Positions 1,293 to 39,224 of a stretch of 39,224 bases of DNA are shown here, one piece after another. Within the stretch, counting starts at the first letter, position 1. The number at the start of each line of letters is the position of its first letter. The notes below the pieces were generated by a model. It saw nothing but the letters and a program-made list of their open reading frames with translations. It did no database searches and was not told the origin of the DNA. This DNA comes from Enterobacteria phage IME177. Location of the stretch: sequence record MZ398247.1. The stretch is one strand, 5' to 3'. The position numbers and the translations under genes are program-made.

Positions 1293-3824
1293 ATGTCCAC
1301 GATTACACAATTCCCTACAGGAAACACTCAGTACAGGATTGAGTTCGACTACCTAGCCAGAACGTTTGTTGTTGTTACGCTGGTGAATAGCTCTAACCCT
1401 ACCCTGAACCGTGTACTGGAAGTTGGTCGAGATTACCGATTCCTTAATCCAACGATGGTTGAGATGTTGGTTGACCAATCAGGTTTCGACATCGTTCGCA
1501 TTCACCGTCAGACTGGAACTGACTTAGTGGTAGACTTCAGGAATGGCTCAGTGTTGACAGCTAGTGACCTGACCAATTCAGAGCTTCAGGCTATCCATAT
1601 TGCAGAAGAAGGTCGAGACCAAACGGTTGACTTAGCGAAGGAATATGCCGATGCTGCTGGTAGCTCTGCTGGCAACGCTAAGGATAGCGAGGACGAAGCA
1701 CGCCGAATCGCTGCGAGTATCAGGGAAGCTGGTCTAATTGGCTATATTACCCGTCGCTCCTTCGAGAAAGGCTACAACGTTACAACATGGAGCGAGGTCC
1801 TGCTATGGGAAGAGGATGGTGATTATTACCGCTGGGATGGTACGCTTCCAAAGAGTGTTCCTGCTGGTTCAACTCCTGAAACTTCCGGTGGGATTGGATT
1901 AGGTGCGTGGGTTAGTGTTGGTGATGCTGCTTTAAGAAGTCAGATTTCAAACCCGGAAGGGGCAATACTCTACCCGGAATTGCAGATGGCAAGATGGCGT
2001 GATGAGGGTGATGTTCGAGGCTGGGGTGCTAAAGGGGATGGTGTAACAGATAGTACGGAGAATATAGCCGCTTCACTAAATTCTCAAAAAGCTGTCGTAG
2101 CATCAGAAGGTGTATTCTCTAGTTCTGGTATTAATAGTGATTACTGTAACTTAGACGGTAGAGGCAGTGGGGTGCTAAGTCACCGTTCCAGTACAGGTAA
2201 CTACTTAGTATTTAACAATCCACGTACAGGTCGCTTAAGTAATATTACGGTAGAAAGTAATAAGGCGACGGATACCACTCAGGGACAGCAGGTATCTCTT
2301 GCTGGTGGCAGTGATGTTACGGTAAGTGACGTTAACTTCTCAAACGTTAAAGGTACTGGTTTCAGTTTAATCGCATACCCTAATGATGCGCCACCTGATG
2401 GGCTTATGATTAAAGGCATTCGAGGTAGCTATTCCGGCTATGCCACTAATAAGGCGGCTGGATGCGTACTTGCTGACTCCTCAGTTAACTCCCTCATAGA
2501 TAACGTCATTGCTAAGAACTACCCTCAGTTCGGAGCTGTAGAGCTGAAAGGTACAGCCAGTTACAACATAGTTAGTAATGTTATAGGGACAGATTGCCAG
2601 CATGTAACCTACAACGGTACTGAAGGGTCAATAGCTCCTTCTAATAACCTTATCAAGGGGGTAGTTGCTAATAATCCTAAATATGCAGCGGTTGTTGCAG
2701 GCAAAGGTAGTACCAACTTAATCTCCGATGTGCTTGTAGATTTCTCAACCTCTGATGCTAGGCAGGCTCATGGTGTTACAGTAGAAGGTCCTGATAACGT
2801 CATAAATAATGTGCTTATGTCAGGGTGTGATGGTACTAACTCTTTAGGGCAAGCTCAAACTGCTACAATTGCACGCTTTATAGATACAGCTAATAACAAC
2901 TATGCGTCTGTATTTCCTAGCTACAGTGCTACAGGTGTTATTACTTTCGAATCAGGTTCTACCCGTAACTTCGTAGAGGTAAAGCATCCGGGAAGGAGAA
3001 ACGACCTTCTCAGTGCTACTGGTACTATTAGCGGTGCAGATACTATTGACGGCACTAATAATAGCAACGTAGTGCACGCCCCTGCATTAGGGCAGTACAT
3101 AGGCAGTATGTCCGGTAGGTTCGAATGGCGGATTAAGTCCATGTCACTTCCATCAGGGGTTCTTACCTCTGCGGATAAGTACAGGATGCTTGCCGATGGG
3201 GCTGTGTCATTAGCTGTAGGCGGAGGTACTTCTTCTCAAGTACGCCTGTTCACTTCTGACGGCACTTATAGGAATATATCACTTACTAGCGGTAACGTGC
3301 GTCTTCCTACCAGTAGCACAGGTTATTTGCAGTTAGGTTCTAATGCAATGACCCCAGATAGTACTAATACATACGCATTAGGTTCCGCAAGTCGAGCATG
3401 GTCTGGCGGTTTTACTCAATCAGCATTCACTGTTGTCTCAGATGCTAGGGATAAAACAGAGCCTCTTAATATCTCAGATGCTTTACTGGATGCTTGGTCT
3501 GAAGTTGACTTTGTGCAGTTTCAGTACTTGGACCGAATTGAGGAGAAGGGTGCAGACTCAGCTAGATGGCACTTCGGCATCATCGCTCAGCGAGCTAAGG
3601 AGGCCTTCGAACGTCACGGTATAGATGCACACCGCTATGGCTTCCTGTGCTTCGACAGTTGGGATGATGTATACGAGGAAGATGCCAATGGCTCTCGTAA
3701 ACTGATTACACCAGCAGGTTCCCGCTACGGTATTCGTTACGAGGAAGTACTGATATTAGAGGCTGCGTTGATGCGGCGTACTATTAAGCGTATGCAGGAA
3801 GCATTAGCTGTTATGTCTAAGTGA
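1293..3824 (+). CDS. gp17: tail fibre / tailspike protein: T7 gp17-like N-terminal anchor + pectate-lyase-3-like beta-helix domain + C-terminal intramolecular chaperone (peptidase S74-like) domain
   Basis: 843-aa ORF with RBS aaaggagg. N-terminus (EFDYLARTFVVVTL...HIAEEGRD) resembles T7 gp17 N-terminal domain; WGAKGDGVTDSTENIAASL is the hallmark start of pectate-lyase-3 beta-helix domains; C-terminus carries SDARDK...RWHFGIIAQRAKEAF, the pattern of self-cleaving chaperone domains of phage tailspikes. Confidence 0.88.
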   Translation: MSTITQFPTGNTQYRIEFDYLARTFVVVTLVNSSNPTLNRVLEVGRDYRFLNPTMVEMLVDQSGFDIVRIHRQTGTDLVVDFRNGSVLTASDLTNSELQAIHIAEEGRDQTVDLAKEYADAAGSSAGNAKDSEDEARRIAASIREAGLIGYITRRSFEKGYNVTTWSEVLLWEEDGDYYRWDGTLPKSVPAGSTPETSGGIGLGAWVSVGDAALRSQISNPEGAILYPELQMARWRDEGDVRGWGAKGDGVTDSTENIAASLNSQKAVVASEGVFSSSGINSDYCNLDGRGSGVLSHRSSTGNYLVFNNPRTGRLSNITVESNKATDTTQGQQVSLAGGSDVTVSDVNFSNVKGTGFSLIAYPNDAPPDGLMIKGIRGSYSGYATNKAAGCVLADSSVNSLIDNVIAKNYPQFGAVELKGTASYNIVSNVIGTDCQHVTYNGTEGSIAPSNNLIKGVVANNPKYAAVVAGKGSTNLISDVLVDFSTSDARQAHGVTVEGPDNVINNVLMSGCDGTNSLGQAQTATIARFIDTANNNYASVFPSYSATGVITFESGSTRNFVEVKHPGRRNDLLSATGTISGADTIDGTNNSNVVHAPALGQYIGSMSGRFEWRIKSMSLPSGVLTSADKYRMLADGAVSLAVGGGTSSQVRLFTSDGTYRNISLTSGNVRLPTSSTGYLQLGSNAMTPDSTNTYALGSASRAWSGGFTQSAFTVVSDARDKTEPLNISDALLDAWSEVDFVQFQYLDRIEEKGADSARWHFGIIAQRAKEAFERHGIDAHRYGFLCFDSWDDVYEEDANGSRKLITPAGSRYGIRYEEVLILEAALMRRTIKRMQEALAVMSK

Positions 3825-4484: not shown

Positions 4485-4919
4485 ATGCTCGAATTTTTAA
4501 AGAGAGCGGCTCCGTGGCTACTTGCAGCAGTGATGTTTGCTGGTGGCTACCACACCGCTAACAATAAGTGGGAGGCTAAAGTAAATGAAGAATACATCAC
4601 GAAACTTGAGGCACGAGAGAGTCAACGAACTGCTATCCAAGCACGAGTCGATGAAGTCTCAGCGGAGTGGCAGGACAAGATGTCCTCGCTGGAAGGCTCT
4701 ACTGATAGGATTATTAATGACCTTAACCGCGATAACAAGCGGCTGCTCGTCAAAGTCAAGACCTCAGGTCTCAGCGAGCCAGATTACAGTCGATGCTTCC
4801 CTAATGGTAGAGTCGAACTACACCCAGAAACTTCTAAAAGTCTTATCCGAATAACGCAAGAAGCTGACCTTAAGGAGAAAGCTCTACAGGAAACCATAAG
4901 GAGGTTGCGTGGCGAATAA
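4485..4919 (+). CDS. gp18.5: Rz-like i-spanin (gp18.5-like)
   Basis: 144 aa, N-terminal TM segment then coiled-coil-like charged sequence; Rz1-like ORF embedded in +1 frame; T7 gp18.5 position. Confidence 0.8.
4585..4854 (+). CDS. gp18.7: Rz1-like o-spanin lipoprotein embedded in the i-spanin gene (gp18.7-like); true start may be internal
   Basis: +1 frame ORF inside 4485-4919; ...[23 protein letters not shown] contains a lipobox (ITSGC) and resembles T7 gp18.7 as recalled. Confidence 0.6.
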   Translation: MKNTSRNLRHERVNELLSKHESMKSQRSGRTRCPRWKALLIGLLMTLTAITSGCSSKSRPQVSASQITVDASLMVESNYTQKLLKVLSE

Positions 4920-6678
4920 GAAAACACCTGCTGAAAGACAGGCAGAAATGACCCAAAGGATGAGGGATGACTTCGTGTTCTTCATCTTCGTTCTATGGAA
5001 AGCTCTGAGCCTTCCTGTTCCAACACGCTGCCAGATAGATATGTGTAAGAAGCTGGCGGCTGGAGATAATCGACGCTTCATCCTTCAAGCATTCCGTGGT
5101 ATTGGAAAGTCGTTCCTGACCTGTGGTTTCGTGGTCTGGAAGTTATGGAATAACCCGGACTTGAAGTTCATGATTGTGTCGGCCTCAAAGGAACGAGCTG
5201 ATGCTAACTCCATATTCATCAAGCGAATCATCGACCTCATGCCTCAGCTTCAGGAACTCAAACCTAAGCAAGGGCAGCGAGATGCGGTTATCAGCTTCGA
5301 CGTTGGACCAGCCAAGCCAGACCACTCACCTTCGGTTAAGTCCGTTGGTATCACTGGTCAGTTGACTGGTAGTCGTGCTGACATCCTGATTGCCGATGAC
5401 GTGGAGGTTCCAAACAACTCAGCGACTCAGGCTGCACGAGACCGCCTGTCAGAGCTTGTGAAAGAGTTCGACGCTATCCTGAAGCCGGGAGGTACAATCA
5501 TTTATCTGGGTACTCCTCAGAACGAGATGACCCTGTACCGTGAGTTGGAAGGTCGTGGGTACACCACTACTATCTGGCCTGCTCGTTATCCACGAGACAG
5601 AAAGGACTGGCAGTCTTACGGCGACCGTCTGGCACCGATGCTTCAGGCAGAGCTGGAAGAGGACCCTGAGTCCTTCTACTGGCGTCCGACCGATGAAGTA
5701 CGATTTGATGATACGGACCTGAAGGAACGTGAGCTGTCCTATGGTAAAGCTGGCTTCGCTCTACAGTTCATGCTTAACCCTAACCTGAGTGATGCTGAGA
5801 AGTACCCTCTGAAGCTCCGTGACCTTATCGTAGCCGACTTGGACCCAGCGTCTAGCCCAATGGTATACCAATGGCTTCCTAACCCTCAGAACAAGCGTGA
5901 GGACGTTCCTAACGTTGGACTCATGGGTGACTCATACCACACGTATCAGACTGTAGGTTCTGCCTTCAGTTCGTACACCCAGAAGATTCTGGTCATTGAC
6001 CCTAGTGGTCGTGGTAAAGATGAAACTGGTTATGCGGTACTGTCCCAGCTCAACGGCTACATCTTCGCTATGGAAGTTGGCGGTATGCGAGGTGGCTATG
6101 AAGACTCTACGCTGGAAGCCTTGGCTAAGATTGGTCGTAAGTGGAAGGTCAACGAATACGTCATTGAGGGTAACTTCGGTGATGGTATGTACCTTGAGCT
6201 ATTCAAGCCTGTAGCTTCCCGTATTCATCCTGCTGCTGTAACTGAAGTGAAGAGTAAGGGTCAGAAGGAACTCCGCATCTGTGACGTTCTGGAGCCTATC
6301 ATGGGGTCTCACCGACTTATCGTCAACGCTTCTGCTATCGTCCAAGACTACCAGACAGCCTCTGACAAGGATGGTGTGCGTAACCCTATCTACTCTCTCT
6401 TCTATCAGATGACCCGTATCTCTCGTGAACGTGGAGCACTGGCACACGATGACCGACTTGATGCGCTGGCTATCGGTGTACAGTTCTTCGTTGAGTCTAT
6501 GGCTAAGGATGCCAACAAAGGCGAACGTGAAGTCACTGAGGAGTGGCTGGAGGAACAGATGGAGAACCCACGGAAAGGCTTCGAGTCCATCCACACTGAG
6601 TTCTGGGACAATGGGGTCCGGGTAACTCACGATACGGACGACGAGCTGGGGCTAGGGTCCTACGTTACGTTCCACTAG
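4909..6678 (+). CDS. gp19: terminase large subunit (gp19-like), probable GTG start
   Basis: 589 aa; RBS ataaggagg; ...[13 protein letters not shown]..., [40 protein letters not shown] colinear with T7 gp19 as recalled. Confidence 0.93.
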
Positions 6679-6772: not shown

Positions 6773-6795
6773 ACTTAACTATCACTATAGGGAAG
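6773..6795 (+). promoter_or_regulatory. phage RNA polymerase promoter (phiOR-like), predicted +1 at 6790
   Basis: acttaactatcactatagggaag downstream of the large terminase gene, the position of T7 phiOR. Confidence 0.8.
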
Positions 6796-6975: not shown

Positions 6976-7134
6976 ATGGCAAAGACCAAAGCTGTACTTA
7001 AAGCTCTGGCGACCAATCGAGCTACATACAGGTTTCTTGCTGCTGTTCTACTTGCTGCTGGCGTTACTGCTGGAAGTAAGTGGGTCGGGTGGGTCGAGAC
7101 TCTCGTATGTTCTCTGGTGTCTCAGTGTAATTAA
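6976..7134 (+). CDS. small hydrophobic protein (gp19.5-position ORF)
   Basis: 52-codon ORF with strong RBS caggagg 8 nt upstream; hydrophobic core LAAVLLAAGVTAG; last ORF before the genome-end region. Below the 60-aa cutoff of the ORF track. Confidence 0.45.
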   Translation: MAKTKAVLKALATNRATYRFLAAVLLAAGVTAGSKWVGWVETLVCSLVSQCN

Positions 7135-7167
7135 CGCAATCATGGTAACGATTCATGAGCGGAAGAC

Positions 7168-7210
7168 CTAAGGTCAGTACGTGGATAAAGACTCACTCTA
7201 CTGACCTTAG
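7168..7210 (+). promoter_or_regulatory. perfect 12-bp inverted repeat (ctaaggtcagta / tactgaccttag) with 19-nt loop
   Basis: Read directly; lies in non-coding DNA between the last late gene and the putative terminal repeat. Confidence 0.4.
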
Positions 7211-7372
7211 CTACTGTAGTCAAGGACTTTAGGTAACACCTTAATAGAAGCTCACCTAGGGTCATCCTACTTATTGGTCTATCCTAGTGTCGCCTGACCT
7301 ACGGTCCTTGACCTACAGTAGCTGCCACCTACGGTCACTCGATGAGTTTTGGACCAAAAGTTTGAGACCACA

Positions 7373-7590
7373 TCTCACAGTTCAAGAACCTCAAGTCTCC
7401 CCATAGGCCCTCTTTAAGTCCAGACCAAAGGCCCTACCCGTTACTGCTCCTTGCAGTCACAGCCAGTCTATCATAAGGTTAGACCGATGGTCAAGACGTT
7501 AGGTCAACTATAGGTCTAGGCTATGGCTGGAGGTCAGGACGATAGGTAGGGACTATGGGTCTGTCTCTGAGTCTCTATCTGTATAACCAT
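7373..7590 (+). repeat. probable direct terminal repeat / physical genome end region (single copy in this permuted assembly); boundaries approximate
   Basis: tctcacagttcaagaacctcaagtctccccatagg resembles the T7 left end (TCTCACAGTGTACGGACCTAAAGTTCCCCCATAGGGGG as recalled); flanked on both sides by ACCTAC(A/G)GT short repeats, as the T7 terminal repeat is flanked by CCTAAAG-type repeats. Confidence 0.4.
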
Positions 7591-7593
7591 AGG

Positions 7594-7623
7594 TCCTACA
7601 ACCTACAGTCCTACAACCTACAG
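7594..7623 (+). repeat. perfect tandem direct repeat, 15 bp x 2 (tcctacaacctacag), part of an array of ACCTAC(A/G)GT motifs (also 7305-7345, 7630-7670)
   Basis: Exact repeat read from the sequence; at least 7 copies of the core motif between 7305 and 7670. Confidence 0.7.
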
Positions 7624-7794
7624 TCTAACTAACCTACAGTATCAACCATAAGACACCAACACCTACGGTCATAGACCCACAGTTAATAGACACAAAGCTA
7701 TAGACTTGAGGTCAACGACATGTTAGTCAAAGACTATATCCTATTACACCATGGGGCCGACGATAGCTTAATCAATATTATTTAAGATTACCTA

Positions 7795-7823
7795 TTGACT
7801 ACAGGTCCAGACTATGGCTTAAT
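7795..7823 (+). promoter_or_regulatory. sigma70-type early promoter (A1-like): -35 TTGACT, 17-bp spacer, -10 CTTAAT
   Basis: ttgactacaggtccagactatggcttaat parallels T7 A1 (TTGACTtaaagtctaacctatagGATACT as recalled); downstream leader resembles the T7 A1-A2 interval. Confidence 0.45.
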
Positions 7824-7935
7824 AGCTTCCGTCAACACGACACGGCAACAACCGGATAGTGAAGACGCCGGGTCATCCCGGTTAAGTAGACAGCCTGATA
7901 AGTCATACGAACAACAGGCAGATGACAGAAAGTAG

Positions 7936-7965
7936 TTGACAAGATGTACCGACTTAAAGTAGTAT
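7936..7965 (+). promoter_or_regulatory. sigma70-type early promoter (A2/A3-like): -35 TTGACA, -10 TAGTAT
   Basis: ttgacaagatgtaccgacttaaagtagtatgtaccac parallels T7 A3 (TTGACAacatgaagtaaacacggTACGATgtaccac as recalled). Confidence 0.55.
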
Positions 7966-8173
7966 GTACCACATCAACACGAAACAACGGTGACGACCAA
8001 CACTGAAACGGTCTACCTGAAGTCCTCTGACTGAAGGGAATGCTCTTTAACAATCTGGATAAACTCTTAATGTGCGCCGACAGTGATTAACTACAGGGTC
8101 TTTGAGTCTACATCTGAAGGCCCTGACTGATAGTCACTAACATACACACAATTAACTTTGAGAGGATATAACT

Positions 8174-8677
8174 ATGGAACGTAACGCTAACGCATACTAT
8201 GAGCTGCTGGCTGCAACCGTTGAGGCATTTATCGAGCGTATTCAGTACGACCACCTGACTAAAGATGATGACTACAGCGATGCGCTGCATGAGGTCGTAG
8301 ACAGTCAGGTCCCGCTCTATTACCACGAGATTTTCACGGTGATGGCTGCTGATGGTATAGACCACGAGTTCGAAGACTCTGGGCTGATGCCTGAAACCAA
8401 GGACGTAACGCGTATCCTACAAGCTCGCATCTATGAGGCACTTTATAACGACGTGTCTAATAGCTTGGATGTAGTCTGGTTTGAGGATGAAGAGGCAGAC
8501 GAAGAGGATGAATATTGGGTAGTTGACGCTAAAACAGGCGCAATAATTGTGCAAGCTGTAGCTCTTGAGGTCGCTACTGCATGTGCCAAGGTCAACTATG
8601 TGATAGGTCGCCACCTGAAGGTGGAAGACATCAATGATAACGTAGTGTTCGACCCTGCGGCTGAGGACTGCGAGTGA
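8174..8677 (+). CDS. gp0.3: Ocr-like anti-restriction DNA-mimic protein (gp0.3-like) with an extra ~50-aa C-terminal extension
   Basis: 167 aa, first gene after the early promoters; [44 protein letters not shown] matches the core of T7 Ocr as recalled; highly acidic; T7 Ocr is 117 aa. Confidence 0.8.
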
Positions 8678-8893
8678 TGATAACTTACGGTTTATGCCAG
8701 CACCACGTCACCAACGCCCGGATTTTGGTCAAGACCGGGCGGTTAAACCACGAGGAGGCCATGCGTCTCTTGAAAGTGGTCTACAGGAGGCGCAAGCGCA
8801 TACACGACAGCCTACACGCTGAGTGATAAACGAGAGGTCATCTGACTGATAGGTGGCCTCAAAGATTATCACTTACATTGATAGGAGTTAACT

Positions 8894-8998
8894 ATGAGCA
8901 CTGCAATCATCTGGACTATCTCAGGCTTCGTAGCGTGGGGAATGTTTACTCTAGTCTGCAAACTACCGGTCCTTACTCAACTGTTATGGGGCTTATGA
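8894..8998 (+). CDS. small hydrophobic early protein (34 aa)
   Basis: ATG preceded by RBS ggag; sequence MSTAIIWTISGFVAWGMFTLVCKLPVLTQLLWGL is membrane-like; stop overlaps next start (ATGA). Not in ORF track because <60 aa. Confidence 0.4.
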   Translation: MSTAIIWTISGFVAWGMFTLVCKLPVLTQLLWGL

Positions 8999-9198
8999 CT
9001 ATGAGTATCGCACTATTGATAGCCATAGGCTATGGACTTATCGCCTACGTGCTGGTGAGAGACATCAACAAAGCGCGTAAAGTCTACAAATTAAACTATG
9101 TACGTCTGGGTCGCTGGACTGTACGTCAACCTAACGGACGATTCCTGCGCAATTTAGCGAACGTCTGGGATATAGCAACTCTTGGGAGCAAACTGTAA
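8995..9198 (+). CDS. small early membrane protein (67 aa)
   Basis: In-frame ATG of track ORF 8878-9198; TM segment SIALLIAIGYGLIAYVLV followed by basic tail; translationally coupled to flanking ORFs. Confidence 0.45.
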   Translation: MTMSIALLIAIGYGLIAYVLVRDINKARKVYKLNYVRLGRWTVRQPNGRFLRNLANVWDIATLGSKL

Positions 9199-9524
9199 TG
9201 AACAAGTCATACGGGATTAATCTGGTACACTCTATGGACGCAGAAATGAACATGTTAAGCCTACTGGCTACCGGGTATCGTCACGGAACGTCAAGTCACA
9301 CCGCACGTCAACAGCAGGAGCGGGACCGTGTACTACAGGCGCGACTCCGGGCAGAGGGCCATAAGTCCGAACTGATGTGTCTGGCGTATGGTGGACGACC
9401 AATCACCGACGATGGTAAACTTCTGGTATCAGGCTGGAAGGCGATAGACCAACGGTCAACCATCAAGCACACGACTCACGGTGACTTCAGCCATCTCCAC
9501 GCTAACCCACTGATATGCAAGTGA
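9198..9524 (+). CDS. hypothetical early protein (108 aa) at the position of T7 gene 0.7; no kinase motifs
   Basis: ORF starts with TAATG overlap of upstream stop; last gene before the RNA polymerase gene; no similarity recognised. Confidence 0.5.
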   Translation: MNKSYGINLVHSMDAEMNMLSLLATGYRHGTSSHTARQQQERDRVLQARLRAEGHKSELMCLAYGGRPITDDGKLLVSGWKAIDQRSTIKHTTHGDFSHLHANPLICK

Positions 9525-9529
9525 TTATG

Positions 9530-9552
9530 ACTTAACTATCACTATAGGACTC
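9530..9552 (+). promoter_or_regulatory. phage RNA polymerase promoter directly upstream of the RNA polymerase gene, predicted +1 at 9547
   Basis: cttaactatcactataggactca; 75 nt upstream of the gene 1 start codon. Confidence 0.75.
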
Positions 9553-9621: not shown

Positions 9622-12303
9622 ATGAGCGTCATCTCTATTGATAAACACGACTTCTCTGATGTGTCGAACGCCATTGAGCCGTTTAACCTGCTGGCCGACC
9701 ACTACGGGCAAGACCTTGCAGTCAAACAGCTTCAGCTTGAGCATGAGGCATATACAGAAGGCGAGCGACGTTTCATCAAGAACCTTGAGCGCCAGACCGA
9801 GCGCGGGGAACTGGCAGACAATCAGGTCGCCAAGCCTTTGATGCAGACTCTGGTCCCTAAGATTGCGCAAGCCGTCAGGGAGTGGCACGAAGGCCTAGAC
9901 GGGAAGCTGTCAACCTCGCGTCCTAGCGTAGCGTTCACCATGTTGAGCACTGAAGAGAAGGCCGTAAAGGACCGCTCTATGCGCATCTCCTGTGAGTCCG
10001 CTGCGGTTATCATACTGAAGGTCATACTCTCCAAGCTGGTCAAGCCTGAAGGGATACCGATTACACCGATGGCCTCCGCGATAGGTCGCACACTTGAGGA
10101 CGAAATCCGCTTCGGTCGCATCCGTGACAAAGAGAAGGAGCACTTCAAGAAGGCGATAGCTGAGAACCTGAACAAGCGAGCTGGGGCATCCTACAAGAAA
10201 GCCTACATGCAAGCGGTCGAGGCGTCCATGCTGGAGCAAGGCCAACTGGAAGATGCATGGGGGACTTGGAGTCCTACAGAGGCTGTCCACGTTGGCATCA
10301 AGATGCTCGAGATTGTCATCCAGTCAACACAACTGGTCGAGCTTAAGCGGTACGGTGCTGGTAATGCAGCGGCTGACGTAGAGATGGTCCACCTGTCAGA
10401 CTTCTGGGTCAAGAAGATGGCACAACGAGGATTCAGCCTTGCGGGTATCGCTCCAGTCTACCAGCCTTGCGTCGTTCCGCCTAAGCCGTGGACTGGTGTC
10501 GTAGGTGGTGGGTACTGGGCCAAAGGTCGCAGACCGTTACCATTGATTCGCTTAGGGTCTAAGTCTGCGGTAGCACGTTATGAAGACGTATACATGCCTG
10601 AAGTCTATGACGCTGTGAACATCATTCAGAATACACCTTGGAAAGTTAACAAGAAGGTATTGGACGTGGTGAACATGGTCGAGAAGCTGAACAACACGCC
10701 TATTGATGACATCCCTCAGATGGAACCGCTGAAGCCTGAGGACTATGCTGGTGAAACCGAGGAGGAACTCAAGGCATGGAAGAAGGCTGCTGCTGGTATC
10801 TATCGCCGCGAGAAGGCCAGACAGTCACGCAGATTGTCCATGAGTTTCATCGTATCACAGGCCAACAAGTTCTCACAGTTTAAGGCCATCTGGTTCCCGT
10901 ACAACATGGATTGGCGAGGTCGTGTCTACGCTGTCCCGATGTTCAACCCTCAGGGTAACGACATGCAGAAGGGTCTACTGACTCTGGCGGTCGGAAAGCC
11001 TATCGGGGCGGATGGTTTCAAATGGCTTAAAGTCCACACCGCCAACTGCGCGGGTGTCGATAAGGTAACCTTTGAGGAGCGTATCAAATGGGTGGAAGAC
11101 AATCACGAGAACATTCTGGCAGCAGCCAAATCACCGATGGACAGCATCGAGTGGTGGGGGAGTATGGACAGCCCCTTCTGCTTCCTAGCGGCTTGCTTCG
11201 AGTATTCTGGGGTGATGAACCATGGCTTGACCTACAATTGCTCACTTCCGATTGCCTTCGACGGCTCGTGTTCGGGGATTCAGCACTTCAGCGCGATGCT
11301 GAGGGACCACGTAGGCGGACATGCAGTGAACTTAACGCCGTCTGGTCAGGTGCAGGACATCTACCGTATAGTCTCAGACCGTGTGTCAGACCAGTTGAAA
11401 GAGCTATTACTGAGCGGTACGGACGACGAGCTGGTGACCGTAGAGGACAAGAAGACTGGGGAAATCAGCGAACGCCTGAAGCTTGGGACCAAGAGTCTTG
11501 CGCGTCAGTGGCTGCAATTCGGTATGTCTCGCTCGGTCACTAAGCGCTCGGTCATGACTCTGGCCTACGGGTCGAAAGAGTATGGGTTCGCCGACCAAGT
11601 GTTCGAAGACACCGTGATGCCAGCGATTGACTCCGGTAAGGGAGCAATGTTCACCGAGCCAAGCCAAGCGTCTCGCTTCATGGCTAAGATGATTTGGGAA
11701 GCTGTGAGTGTGACAGTAGTTGCTGCGGTTGACGCGATGAAGTGGCTTCAAGGTGCCGCCAAGCTGCTGGCTGCTGAAGTGAAGGACAAGAAGACTGGTG
11801 AAATCCTGAAGCCATGCCTTCCGGTACACTGGGTCACACCTGATGGGTTCCCGGTCTGGCAGGAATACCGCAAGAAGGATACCACTCGTCTGAACCTGAT
11901 GTTCTTAGGGTCCTTCAACCTTCAACCTACGGTCAACAAAGGTACGAAGAAAGAGCTGGACAAGCACAAGCAGGAGTCAGGCATTAGCCCGAACTTCGTC
12001 CACTCACAAGATGGTAGCCACCTCCGCAAGACTGTAGTCCACACTCACCGAAAGTATGGCGTGATGTCATTCGCAGTGATTCACGATAGCTTCGGGACCA
12101 TCCCGGCTGACGCTGAGTATCTGTTCCGTGGCGTCCGTGAGACGATGGTAGAGACTTACCGCGATAACGATGTGCTGCTTGACTTCTACGAGCAGTTTGA
12201 ATACCAGCTTCATGAAAGTCAGCGCGACAAGTTGCCTGAGCTTCCGAAGAAAGGTAAACTGAATATCGAAGACATCTTGTCTTCAGACTTTGCATTCGCT
12301 TAA
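9622..12303 (+). CDS. gp1: single-subunit DNA-directed RNA polymerase (T7 gp1-like)
   Basis: 893 aa; colinear with T7 RNAP as recalled, including catalytic-Asp motifs AFDGSCSGIQHFSAMLRD and VIHDSFGTIPADA, specificity-loop region LNLMFLGSFNLQPTVNKGTK, C-terminal FAFA. Confidence 0.97.
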   Translation: MSVISIDKHDFSDVSNAIEPFNLLADHYGQDLAVKQLQLEHEAYTEGERRFIKNLERQTERGELADNQVAKPLMQTLVPKIAQAVREWHEGLDGKLSTSRPSVAFTMLSTEEKAVKDRSMRISCESAAVIILKVILSKLVKPEGIPITPMASAIGRTLEDEIRFGRIRDKEKEHFKKAIAENLNKRAGASYKKAYMQAVEASMLEQGQLEDAWGTWSPTEAVHVGIKMLEIVIQSTQLVELKRYGAGNAAADVEMVHLSDFWVKKMAQRGFSLAGIAPVYQPCVVPPKPWTGVVGGGYWAKGRRPLPLIRLGSKSAVARYEDVYMPEVYDAVNIIQNTPWKVNKKVLDVVNMVEKLNNTPIDDIPQMEPLKPEDYAGETEEELKAWKKAAAGIYRREKARQSRRLSMSFIVSQANKFSQFKAIWFPYNMDWRGRVYAVPMFNPQGNDMQKGLLTLAVGKPIGADGFKWLKVHTANCAGVDKVTFEERIKWVEDNHENILAAAKSPMDSIEWWGSMDSPFCFLAACFEYSGVMNHGLTYNCSLPIAFDGSCSGIQHFSAMLRDHVGGHAVNLTPSGQVQDIYRIVSDRVSDQLKELLLSGTDDELVTVEDKKTGEISERLKLGTKSLARQWLQFGMSRSVTKRSVMTLAYGSKEYGFADQVFEDTVMPAIDSGKGAMFTEPSQASRFMAKMIWEAVSVTVVAAVDAMKWLQGAAKLLAAEVKDKKTGEILKPCLPVHWVTPDGFPVWQEYRKKDTTRLNLMFLGSFNLQPTVNKGTKKELDKHKQESGISPNFVHSQDGSHLRKTVVHTHRKYGVMSFAVIHDSFGTIPADAEYLFRGVRETMVETYRDNDVLLDFYEQFEYQLHESQRDKLPELPKKGKLNIEDILSSDFAFA

Positions 12304-36504: not shown

Positions 36505-39224
36505 ATGGCGACTCGTGGTATTCGCAATAACAATCCGGGTAACATCCGGGTAAGTAAGGACCAATGGGAAGGAATGACTGGAGATGATGGCGCATTCGTC
36601 ACCTTCGATAGTCCAGAGTCTGGCGTCCGAGCTTTAGGTAAAAACCTGCTGTCCTACGGTCGCCGAGGTTATGACTCCATCGAGAAGATTATCAACCGAT
36701 GGGCACCTCCTAACGAGAACGACACTAAGGCTTATATCGACTCAGTGGTGGCTGCAACTGGTATTCCAGCTACCCAGAGTCTCGACCTATCGGACCCTGA
36801 CACCCTGTCTTCTCTGGCTCAAGCTATCAGCTTCCATGAGACAGGCTCCCGGTACGACCCTGAAGTCTATCAGAAGGGAGTCGCACGAGCGCTCAATGGC
36901 ATTAGCCCAAAGACTCCACCAGTAAGCGCTAACGTATTTGACGCACTCACGGAAGGACTCAAGGCTAAACCTAAAGTAGCTCTTGGTGAGAACCTTCCGA
37001 CCGCTGCTGGTCTAAACATTGAGGGTCAAGCACCTGAAGCTCCCAACGAATCGTTCGGTGAGATGTTCTATAAGTCTACTGGCGAGACCATGCAGGAACG
37101 AGAGGATCGCTCTACGTGGTTCGGTTTCGGTGCTGCTACAGAAGCTGAAGTGAAGAACTCTATGGTAGGCGTGGCTATCCGCGCTGGGCAGACAGAGGAC
37201 TCACTTGATGTCATTGGCGATGTGTTCAACCCGACCCGCTGGAACAACCATAAGTGGACTCGTGAAGAGCTTGACCAGATTCGTAACGCTGGGGTTCTGC
37301 CTCAGTATTACGGAGTCATTACTGGTGGCTCCCCTCAGAACCTGACCGAGCTTATTAACTTGGCGCTTGAGAACCAGAAGTTGGACCAAGAGAAGGCCAA
37401 GGCTGGGACTGGTGCTCAGTTAGCTGCTGGTGTGATTGGCGCTGGTGTAGACCCTCTGACATACGTTCCTATCGCTGGACAGGTTGGTAAAGGCGGTAAG
37501 CTGGTCAACAAGATGTTCACCGTGGCTGCTCAATCTGGAGCACTGGCTGGTGTGTCCGAGATGGCCCGTACCTCAGTGGCTGGTGGTGATGCTCATGTGG
37601 CTGAAGCTATCCTTGGTGGTGCTCTCTTCGGTGGTGGTATGACTGCTATCGCTGATGGGTTAGGCAGAGCCTTAGGTCGCAACACTAATGAGTTTGCTGG
37701 CCCAGCTACACGTCTGGAAGCTCGTGAGACCGCTCGTAACGTTGATGGTCAGGACCTGTCTCGTCTCCCTATTCAGGAAGGTGAGCAGACCTTTAGTCAT
37801 CAAGGCGTTAAGTTCGCTGACGTTCCGAACGAGCCGGGTAGTGTACGACTGGAAGATGGTTCAATCCTGATTGGTGAGAACCCTCTGAACCCTAAGACAC
37901 GTCAAGTCTTTGATGAAGTGATTGAGCCTGAACGTGCCGCTGCTGGTGTGAACCTTGGTGGGCTTACTGAGATTGGCCTGAAGCTGCTTCGGTCAGAGAA
38001 CCCTGAGATTCGTGGAGTCGCTGCTGACTTAGTGCGTTCACCAACTGGTATGCAGTCAGGGGCCTCAGGTAAAATCGGGACCACTGCGTCAGACGTATTT
38101 GAGAGACTTCGTGCTGTGGACCATCGGTTCTACAACGACATCGACGACGCGGTTACTGAGGCGCTCAAGGACCCATACTTCCAGACAGCATTCTGGCGAG
38201 ACTCTGGCGCATTCCGTCAGGACATCTACCAGCGTGTGTCTATGGCTATTGAAGACGGAAGTGGGAACCTGAAGGCTGAACTGACTCCGGGAGAACTGAA
38301 AGTATATGACCTGCTGAAGAACCAGTTTGACGCCAAGCGTGAGATGATGGAGAACCCGGCGATGTTTGGTCGTCCAGACGCTCAGTCTATCTTTCCGGGT
38401 AGCCGCTTCAAGGGAACCTACGTCCCGCATGTGTATAGCAACCAGATGAAGGAGCTGTACATCAAGGAGCTTGGGAGTCCAGAGGCACTACAGGAGGCCA
38501 TCAAGAAGTCATGGTTGACCAGCTATGCGTCTCGACCTGAGGTCAAGAAACGTGTGGACGAGGCACTCTTAGAGGCTGACCCTACGTTGACTCCAGAAGG
38601 ACTTGCGGCTGCGGTCGATAAGTACGCCAACGATAAGGCTTATGGTATCTCTCACACCGAGCAGTTCGAGCGTTCATCCGTAATGGAAGAGAACATCAAT
38701 GGTCTGGTGGGTCTGGAGAACAACAGCTTCCTTGAGGCTCGTAACCTGTTCGATAGCGATATGTCAATCGTCCTACCTAACGGTCAGACCTTCAGTGTCA
38801 ACAACCTGCGTGAGTGGGACATGGACAAGATTGTCCCGGCCTACAACCGTCGAGTTAATGGCGATATTGCTATCATGGCTGGTACAGGCAAGACCACGAA
38901 GGACATGAAGGACTTGGTTGAGACCATGATGAACAAGGCTGGGGATGACGGTAAGTTGAAAGGTGAAGTATCTACCTTACGTGACACCTTGAAGATTCTA
39001 ACTGGTCGTGCTCGACGTGATGGCGCTGATGATGCAGCCTTCGCTACCGTGATGCGCACAATGACAGACCTATCGTTCTTCGCTAAGAATGCCTACATGG
39101 GTGTTCAGAACTTAACGGAGATTGGTGGTATGCTGGCTCGTGGCAACGTTCGTGCAATGCTGCATCAGAACTTAACGGAGATTGGTGGTATGCTGGCTCG
39201 TGGCAACGTTCGTGCAATGCTGCA
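36505..39224 (+). CDS. gp16: internal virion protein D (gp16-like) with N-terminal lytic transglycosylase-like domain; 3' part continues at window positions 1-1228
   Basis: ATG 36505 after taaggag; ...SPTGMQSGASGK..., ...SRFKGTYVPHVY..., ...YGISHTEQFERSS..., ...NGDIAIMAGTGKTTKD... colinear with T7 gp16 as recalled; frame open to window end. Confidence 0.93.
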   Translation, partial: MATRGIRNNNPGNIRVSKDQWEGMTGDDGAFVTFDSPESGVRALGKNLLSYGRRGYDSIEKIINRWAPPNENDTKAYIDSVVAATGIPATQSLDLSDPDTLSSLAQAISFHETGSRYDPEVYQKGVARALNGISPKTPPVSANVFDALTEGLKAKPKVALGENLPTAAGLNIEGQAPEAPNESFGEMFYKSTGETMQEREDRSTWFGFGAATEAEVKNSMVGVAIRAGQTEDSLDVIGDVFNPTRWNNHKWTREELDQIRNAGVLPQYYGVITGGSPQNLTELINLALENQKLDQEKAKAGTGAQLAAGVIGAGVDPLTYVPIAGQVGKGGKLVNKMFTVAAQSGALAGVSEMARTSVAGGDAHVAEAILGGALFGGGMTAIADGLGRALGRNTNEFAGPATRLEARETARNVDGQDLSRLPIQEGEQTFSHQGVKFADVPNEPGSVRLEDGSILIGENPLNPKTRQVFDEVIEPERAAAGVNLGGLTEIGLKLLRSENPEIRGVAADLVRSPTGMQSGASGKIGTTASDVFERLRAVDHRFYNDIDDAVTEALKDPYFQTAFWRDSGAFRQDIYQRVSMAIEDGSGNLKAELTPGELKVYDLLKNQFDAKREMMENPAMFGRPDAQSIFPGSRFKGTYVPHVYSNQMKELYIKELGSPEALQEAIKKSWLTSYASRPEVKKRVDEALLEADPTLTPEGLAAAVDKYANDKAYGISHTEQFERSSVMEENINGLVGLENNSFLEARNLFDSDMSIVLPNGQTFSVNNLREWDMDKIVPAYNRRVNGDIAIMAGTGKTTKDMKDLVETMMNKAGDDGKLKGEVSTLRDTLKILTGRARRDGADDAAFATVMRTMTDLSFFAKNAYMGVQNLTEIGGMLARGNVRAMLHQNLTEIGGMLARGNVRAML
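39105..39224 (+). repeat. perfect 60-bp tandem direct repeat (2 copies, 39105-39164 and 39165-39224), in frame within gp16, ending exactly at the window end
   Basis: Both copies read tcagaacttaacggagattggtggtatgctggctcgtggcaacgttcgtgcaatgctgca; encodes a duplicated 20-aa segment QNLTEIGGMLARGNVRAMLH that T7 gp16 has once. Confidence 0.9.

Follow-up and report, generated by a model that had tools for sequence, protein, structure and literature searches.

The segment at positions 7166-7683 of Enterobacteria phage IME177 (MZ398247.1) is very probably the concatemer junction of a K1F-like phage with T7-type ends, lying in a circular assembly in which the terminal repeat (TR) has collapsed to a single 204-bp copy at 7373-7576. 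Positions are those of the window, by which we mean the whole 39,224-bp stretch that was analysed, equal to the entire genome. The original prediction, made from the letters of the DNA, had put the genome ends near 7373 and the length of the TR at roughly 200 bp; the first agrees to the base with the deposited ends of homologous relatives, and alignment to the exact repeats of those relatives gives 204 bp, with the right boundary at 7576. The junction brings nothing new in kind, because the TRs of T7-type phages, with the arrays beside them, became known when T7 was sequenced, and the ends of close relatives are already deposited and in part mapped experimentally. Its use is in annotation: the IME177 record can be opened and oriented at 7373, with 7373-7576 appended to the right end.

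The layout of open reading frames and the family matches place the genome in the T7 group, and by genome-wide nucleotide identity IME177 belongs to the genus Kayfunavirus, that is, the K1F-like phages of that group. Over 24 kb of the window, Kayfunavirus records are 94-96% identical with 90-95% covered, phage pO2 being the best match (96.3% identity, 95% covered); a nucleotide search with the junction region matched 221 records, most of them Kayfunavirus. Joining base 39224 to base 1 creates a 1321-codon gene 16-like frame (about 36,500 to 1228) that is open only across the join, and we looked for an overlap between the window ends and found none. Since the frame opens on joining and the ends do not overlap, the window appears to be a circularised whole genome cut arbitrarily within gene 16. 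A search of the window for a second copy of the TR likewise found none, as expected if circularisation merged both copies into one; in T7-like phages assembled from short reads, TR copies commonly collapse and the opening point is arbitrary (PMC10438801). With the second 204-bp copy added to the 39,224 bp, the mature linear virion genome would be about 39,428 bp long, with its first base at 7373 and its last near 7576 on the next pass round the circle.

Table 1. Features of the predicted IME177 concatemer junction and its surroundings, in window coordinates.
Feature	Position	Strand	Basis or detail
Tail fibre/spike gene	1293-3824		ORF layout and family matches
Gene 18-like small terminase subunit, 87 aa	4120-4383	+	Pfam PF11123 DNA_Packaging_2, E 3e-12
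Gene 19-like large terminase subunit, 589 aa, T7 type	4909-6678	+	Pfam PF22530 Terminase-T7_RNaseH-like, E 6e-38
Predicted phage-RNA-polymerase promoter, phiOR position	6773-6795	+	core TCACTATAGG at 6782-6791, inferred start 6790
Gene 19.5 homologue, 52 aa, last gene before right end	6976-7134	+	ORF list; equivalent ORF is gp19.5 in PE3-1
Left-flank array	7166-7335	+	ACCTAAGGT 7166, ACCTAGGGT 7254, ACCTACGGT 7297, ACCTACAGT 7311, ACCTACGGT 7327
Perfect 12-bp inverted repeat CTAAGGTCAGTA / TACTGACCTTAG	7168-7210	.	arms 7168-7179 and 7199-7210, 19-nt loop, centre 184 bp left of TR
Last 32 bases of unique right-end DNA, GATGAGTTTTGGACCAAAAGTTTGAGACCACA	7341-7372	+	directly left of the predicted left-end cut or nick
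Predicted terminal repeat, one collapsed copy, 204 bp	7373-7576	+	alignment; right boundary uncertain by -1/+4 nt
ATCTGTA, putative counterpart of the T7 concatemer-junction class II pause/termination signal ATCTGTT	7577-7583	+	directly after TR
Right-flank array	7586-7683	+	ACCTACAGT 7601, 7616 and 7632, ACCTACGGT 7661, ACCCACAGT 7675; holds 15-bp tandem pair
Predicted early host-RNA-polymerase promoter region	7795-7965	+	A1-like -35 TTGACT 7795-7800; A2-like TTGACA-18-TAGTAT 7936-7965
ocr (gene 0.3) homologue, first early gene, 167 aa	8174-8677	+	Pfam PF08684 ocr, E 9e-29
Single-subunit RNA polymerase gene	9622-12303		ORF layout and family matches

The genes and promoters around the junction are those of the T7 group. 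To its left are phiOR and then gene 19.5, to its right the host-type early promoters and then gene 0.3; from gene 19 through phiOR, gene 19.5, the repeat and A1-A3 to gene 0.3, the elements follow one another in the T7 order and with T7 spacing. From the gene 19 stop to phiOR the distance is 104 bp (99 in T7, 103 in T3), and from the gene 19.5 stop to the repeat it is 239 bp (240 in T7, 234 in T3). The large terminase is 64% identical to T7 gp19 over 579 aa, and its PF22530 match is the T7-specific nuclease domain. The plus strand of the window holds nine exact matches to TCACTATAGG, the phiOR-like core among them. On the other side, the early promoter region can be aligned to T7 A1/A2 and shares with T7 and T3 the 21-mer AAGTAGACAGCCTGATAAGTC (window 7884, T7 552, T3 535), the A2-like site scoring 10/12 in a consensus scan. 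No phiOL-type phage promoter was found in 7577-9538, from the TR to the gene upstream of the RNA polymerase, when we searched for TCACTATAGG with at most one mismatch; a phiOL equivalent thus seems to be absent from IME177, unlike in T7 and T3. In the ocr homologue the Pfam domain covers residues 8-94 only, with about 70 C-terminal residues beyond it.

The stretch had been described beforehand as non-coding DNA between the late genes and the early promoters, and this description held: no gene lies between gene 19.5 and ocr, leaving about 1 kb without a credible gene. Recognising the junction for what it probably is keeps such non-coding DNA from being taken for genes. Many deposited relatives carry a 'hypothetical protein' annotated across the non-coding junction; these are probably over-calls.

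The left boundary rests on the ends of deposited relatives. A segment resembling the left end of T7 had been proposed from about 7373; tctcacagttcaagaacctcaagtctccccatagg begins exactly there, and its first nine bases are those of the T7 left end. A search with 7373-7580 as query returned 243 phage records, and in at least 13 deposited Kayfunavirus genomes base 1 corresponds to position 7373 (TCTCACAGTTCAAG...). The homologous base is the first of the record, or the last on the minus strand, in K1F, EcoIv39_Milel, Mt1B1_P3, phiYIO1-1, HC12 and YZ1, and is likewise a record terminus in LS2, LS3, ECG4, PR_Kaz2018, Emlis and Midid; the CR44b record starts 2 nt from it. Comparing both ends of five records gave exact terminal repeats, each starting with TCTCACAGTTCAAG, of 178 bp in K1F as deposited, 184 bp in SH3, 191 bp in SH4 and 202 bp in both Milel and Mt1B1_P3. 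Lengths for the group are thus 178-179 bp for K1F (the 179 being given second-hand in PMC4925675), 183-184 bp for SH3 and 190-191 bp for SH4/SH5. For SH3, SH4 and SH5 the ends were mapped by experiment, with run-off Sanger reads taken from virion DNA (PMC4925675). The forward run-off primer used for SH4/SH5, CTGCTGTTCTACTTGCTGCT (primer from PMC4925675), equals window 7040-7059.

Conservation continues on both sides of this base. The 32 bases of GATGAGTTTTGGACCAAAAGTTTGAGACCACA stand, identical, directly before the right repeat copy in K1F, Milel, SH3, SH4 and Mt1B1_P3 (five of five), and in the Kayfunavirus TRs (K1F, SH3, SH4/SH5, Milel and Mt1B1_P3) at least the first 40 bases of the repeat, together with the preceding 32, are identical to the window. 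At the position of GATGAGTTTTGGACCAAAAGTTTGAGACCACA, T7 and T3 have AAAAATCTGA....TA. Over the first 35 bases of the repeat, the window, T7 and T3 share the skeleton TCTCA.AGT..A.G.ACC..AAGT..CCCC, and all three repeats start with TCTCA(C/T)AGT: TCTCACAGT at window 7373-7381 and at base 1 of T7, TCTCATAGT at base 1 of T3. The T3 start, TCTCATAGTTCAAGAACC..., is nearer to the first 18 bases of the window's repeat than that of T7. A junction 23-mer was found in 16 IMG/VR contigs, seven of which stop 179-196 nt after the base homologous to 7373.

These ends also bear on a quite different account, in which the stretch would be a regulatory or replication-origin region only, its repeats decorative, with headful or other packaging making the ends elsewhere. 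The phiOR and phiOL regions of T7 do double as secondary replication origins, and the region's promoters, for the phage polymerase upstream and for the host enzyme downstream, would suit such an account. Yet the terminase is of T7 type, many independent relatives have been deposited with ends exactly here, some of them experimentally determined, and IMG/VR contigs terminate at the repeat end, so that we consider this account highly improbable. We rejected headful (pac-type) and cos-type ends on the T7-specific nuclease domain of the terminase and the fixed ends of relatives at the homologous base.

For a T7-type junction, the right boundary can be placed by alignment. The repeat ends directly before ATCTGT in the records of T7, T3, Milel, SH4 and Mt1B1_P3; the K1F record is 1 nt shorter and that of SH3 4 nt longer than this consensus. 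Alignment to the exact repeats of relatives would put the boundary at 7576, with an uncertainty of -1/+4 nt, and hence give a TR of 204 bp. Measured from TCTCACAG to ATCTGTA, the repeat is 166-231 bp long among relatives, both boundary sequences being fixed; the repeat of IME177 is among the longest of the set, with only L032 longer at 231 bp. Most of its excess length over K1F comes from 24 nt inserted at 7439-7462, which K1F and SH3 lack and Milel has; the TR region is 98.1% identical to that of phiYIO1-1.

Could the cut sites have moved with this insertion, so that T7-type ends lie at this locus but at boundaries other than 7373-7576? The spread of repeat lengths among relatives and the small departures of K1F and SH3 from the consensus boundary are what such a shift might leave behind. 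The variation in length, however, consists of internal insertions and deletions, whereas both boundaries (...GAGACCACA/TCTCACAG and .../ATCTGTA, the slash marking the boundary) are invariant, and Milel and Mt1B1_P3, which have the longer form of the repeat, still end directly before ATCTGT. We therefore think shifted boundaries improbable and retain 7373-7576.

Inside the predicted repeat, a consensus scan also picked out a leftward sigma-70-like site on the minus strand (7494 to 7465: TTGACC, an 18-nt spacer with TG, TAGACT; 9/12). T3 has an annotated leftward host promoter, A0, within its repeat, to which this match is comparable; we treat the site at 7465-7494 as weak evidence, because sites found by the scan are no more frequent than in shuffled sequence.

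The heptamer directly after the predicted repeat, ATCTGTA, is the sole plus-strand copy in the window and is invariant in all nine related contigs that read through the boundary; the PE3-1 record labels CTATCTGT 'concatemeric junction'. In T7 and T3, the repeat is followed directly by ATCTGTT, the class II pause signal, which is called 'strictly conserved' (bioRxiv 10.1101/2021.01.11.426313; 10.64898/2026.02.12.705533) and described with A, C or T before it. The window's T/ATCTGTA (7576-7583) has T in that place and matches the signal at six of seven bases, the last being A. Any base change in ATCTGTT has been reported to abolish the signal for T7 polymerase (bioRxiv 10.1101/2021.01.11.426313). 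The class II signal has been linked to packaging (PMC3276506, citing Zhang and Studier 2004), the paused polymerase complex contacting gp18 and gp19 and so starting maturation (PMC3276506; bioRxiv 10.1101/2021.01.11.426313; 10.64898/2026.02.12.705533).

By analogy with T7 and T3, the IME177 junction would most likely work as follows. Replication would yield head-to-tail concatemers with a single repeat between adjacent genomes, as described for such phages, in which each junction holds one repeat and the second copy is synthesised in maturation (PMC10438801; PMC4281155). The phage RNA polymerase would start from the phiOR-like promoter at about 6790, run rightward through gene 19.5 and the TR, and pause at the ATCTGTA at 7577. 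There the paused polymerase, the gene 18/19 terminase and a prohead would together begin maturation; the small terminase subunit is known to recognise the packaging signal and the large subunit to cut (PMC9860248). Cuts or nicks at both TR boundaries, with repair synthesis duplicating the TR, would then leave a full repeat on each genome end.

A perfect 12-bp inverted repeat lies further left, its centre 184 bp from the TR (Table 1). As single-stranded DNA, 7168-7210 has a predicted folding energy of -11.3 kcal/mol (z = -4.55 against shuffled sequence). Across 16 related contigs both arms keep an 11-bp core (CTAAGGTCAGT / ACTGACCTTAG) without exception, and the loops between them come in five different sequences. 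At the matching offset after gene 19.5, an imperfect inverted repeat is present in both T7 and T3; in T7 it lies some 185-190 bp to the left of the right repeat copy, and the IME177 element may correspond to it. In the work of Chung, Nardone and Hinkle, a hairpin intermediate of T7 concatemer processing is said to map about 190 bp left of the repeat. The palindrome TTTTGGACCAAAA at 7347-7359, just left of the TR, folds no better than shuffled sequence (z = -0.29), and we do not propose it as a structure.

Two conjectures drawn from these likenesses to T7 and T3 are, in our estimate, possible but rather doubtful. The first is that K1F-like phages use ATCTGTA as a variant pause signal; if true, the K1F-type RNA polymerase would have a shifted specificity for class II signals. 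The second, separate from it, is that the inverted repeat at 7168-7210 is the functional counterpart of those of T7 and T3, forming a hairpin that primes duplication of the TR; if so, position and structure, not sequence, would be conserved across the T7 group.

Both flanks of the TR carry arrays of a short repeat, ACCTACRGT. There are 12 exact matches in the 39,224 bp against 0.81 expected, a number that none of 100 dinucleotide-preserving shuffles reached, and seven of the 11 on the plus strand fall within 7297-7669, three left of the TR and four right of it (Table 1). Allowing up to one mismatch adds the copies at 7166, 7254 and 7675, which makes ten in a single 581-bp interval; the genome-wide median is 0, and no other interval comes close. 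The ACCTAC(A/G)GT repeats on both sides had been noticed before, along with a perfect 15-bp tandem pair at 7594-7623; the pair is there, as two copies of TCCTACAACCTACAG, and so are the flanking repeats, although those on the left had been put at 7305-7345 and in fact occupy 7297-7335, 8-10 nt further left. Nor do the repeats keep strictly outside the TR: two-mismatch copies lie within it at 7388 and 7483, so that the motif family extends into the TR. The copy at 7388 falls on TR position 16, which in the T7 repeat is occupied by the first ACCTAAAGT (CCTAAAG there runs from position 17).

The prediction had drawn on T7, whose TR was said to be flanked by arrays of short repeats. On the T7 sequence itself we found CCTAAAG on both sides of the exact 160-bp repeat, eight times in 175-332 and at 39671 and 39700, and three times inside the repeat; in T7 as in the window, a 9-bp motif recurs to either side of the repeat and within its left portion. 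The T7 motif, ACCTAAAG(T), differs from ACCTACRGT at one position. The likening to T7 is correct as a description, since the arrays are found there and the motifs differ at that one position. Judged by sequence, the ACCTACRGT-type repeats are the Kayfunavirus lineage's version of the T7 ACCTAAAG arrays.

That such arrays are used in concatemer processing, as the prediction stated for T7, is an assumption. In the accessible literature we found no demonstrated function for the T7 flanking arrays, only general statements. The likeliest roles for the arrays are as protein-binding sites or structural DNA elements within the packaging signal. Like the window, its Kayfunavirus relatives have the .../ATCTGTA boundary, the inverted repeat and ACCTACRGT arrays to either side of the TR, and they differ from it in that the window has one TR copy only; the right flank has four exact copies of the motif in the window and between two and seven among relatives. 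In the PE3-1 record, a 16-bp unit, AACCATAGGTCTCAAC, is repeated in tandem about five additional times right of the repeat, at 735-830. Variation in right-flank copy number fits slippage and loose constraint. The 210 bp left of the TR (7163-7372), by comparison, show hardly any variation across five relatives and are better conserved than the TR interior; because this segment is conserved as a whole, the left-flank repeats in it may be conserved for reasons other than being repeats.

The ACCTACRGT copies could accordingly be filler made by slippage, with only the TR boundaries, the pause motif and the conserved left flank mattering for packaging. We take this seriously, with a chance of being right that is substantial although short of even: right-flank copy number differs among otherwise close relatives, the five extra 16-bp units of PE3-1 being one instance, and the 15-bp tandem pair resembles a recent duplication. 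Against it, the core motif has been retained to either side of the TR throughout Kayfunavirus, its copies on the left do not vary, and it stays within one base of the T7/T3 ACCTAAAG despite about 35% divergence of the terminase proteins.

Beyond the shared layout, the junctions of T7 and T3 differ from that of IME177 in detail. The T7 repeat cannot be aligned to the window's past the first 35 or so bases; it is followed by ATCTGTT where the window has ATCTGTA, and the T7 inverted repeat has another sequence, that of the window being perfect over 12 bp. T3 has a boundary of the same type as the window's, ...CCCT/ATCTGTTA, but its 'redundant terminal repeat' measures 231 bp against 204 bp, its interior sequence is different and its flank motif is CCTAAAG.

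Outside the junction, the tail fibre or spike gene at 1293-3824 combines the N-terminal domain of the T7 tail fibre with Tail_spike_N and a C-terminal Peptidase_S74 (endosialidase chaperone) domain. This predicted domain set indicates a depolymerase-type spike, shorter than the endosialidase of K1F.
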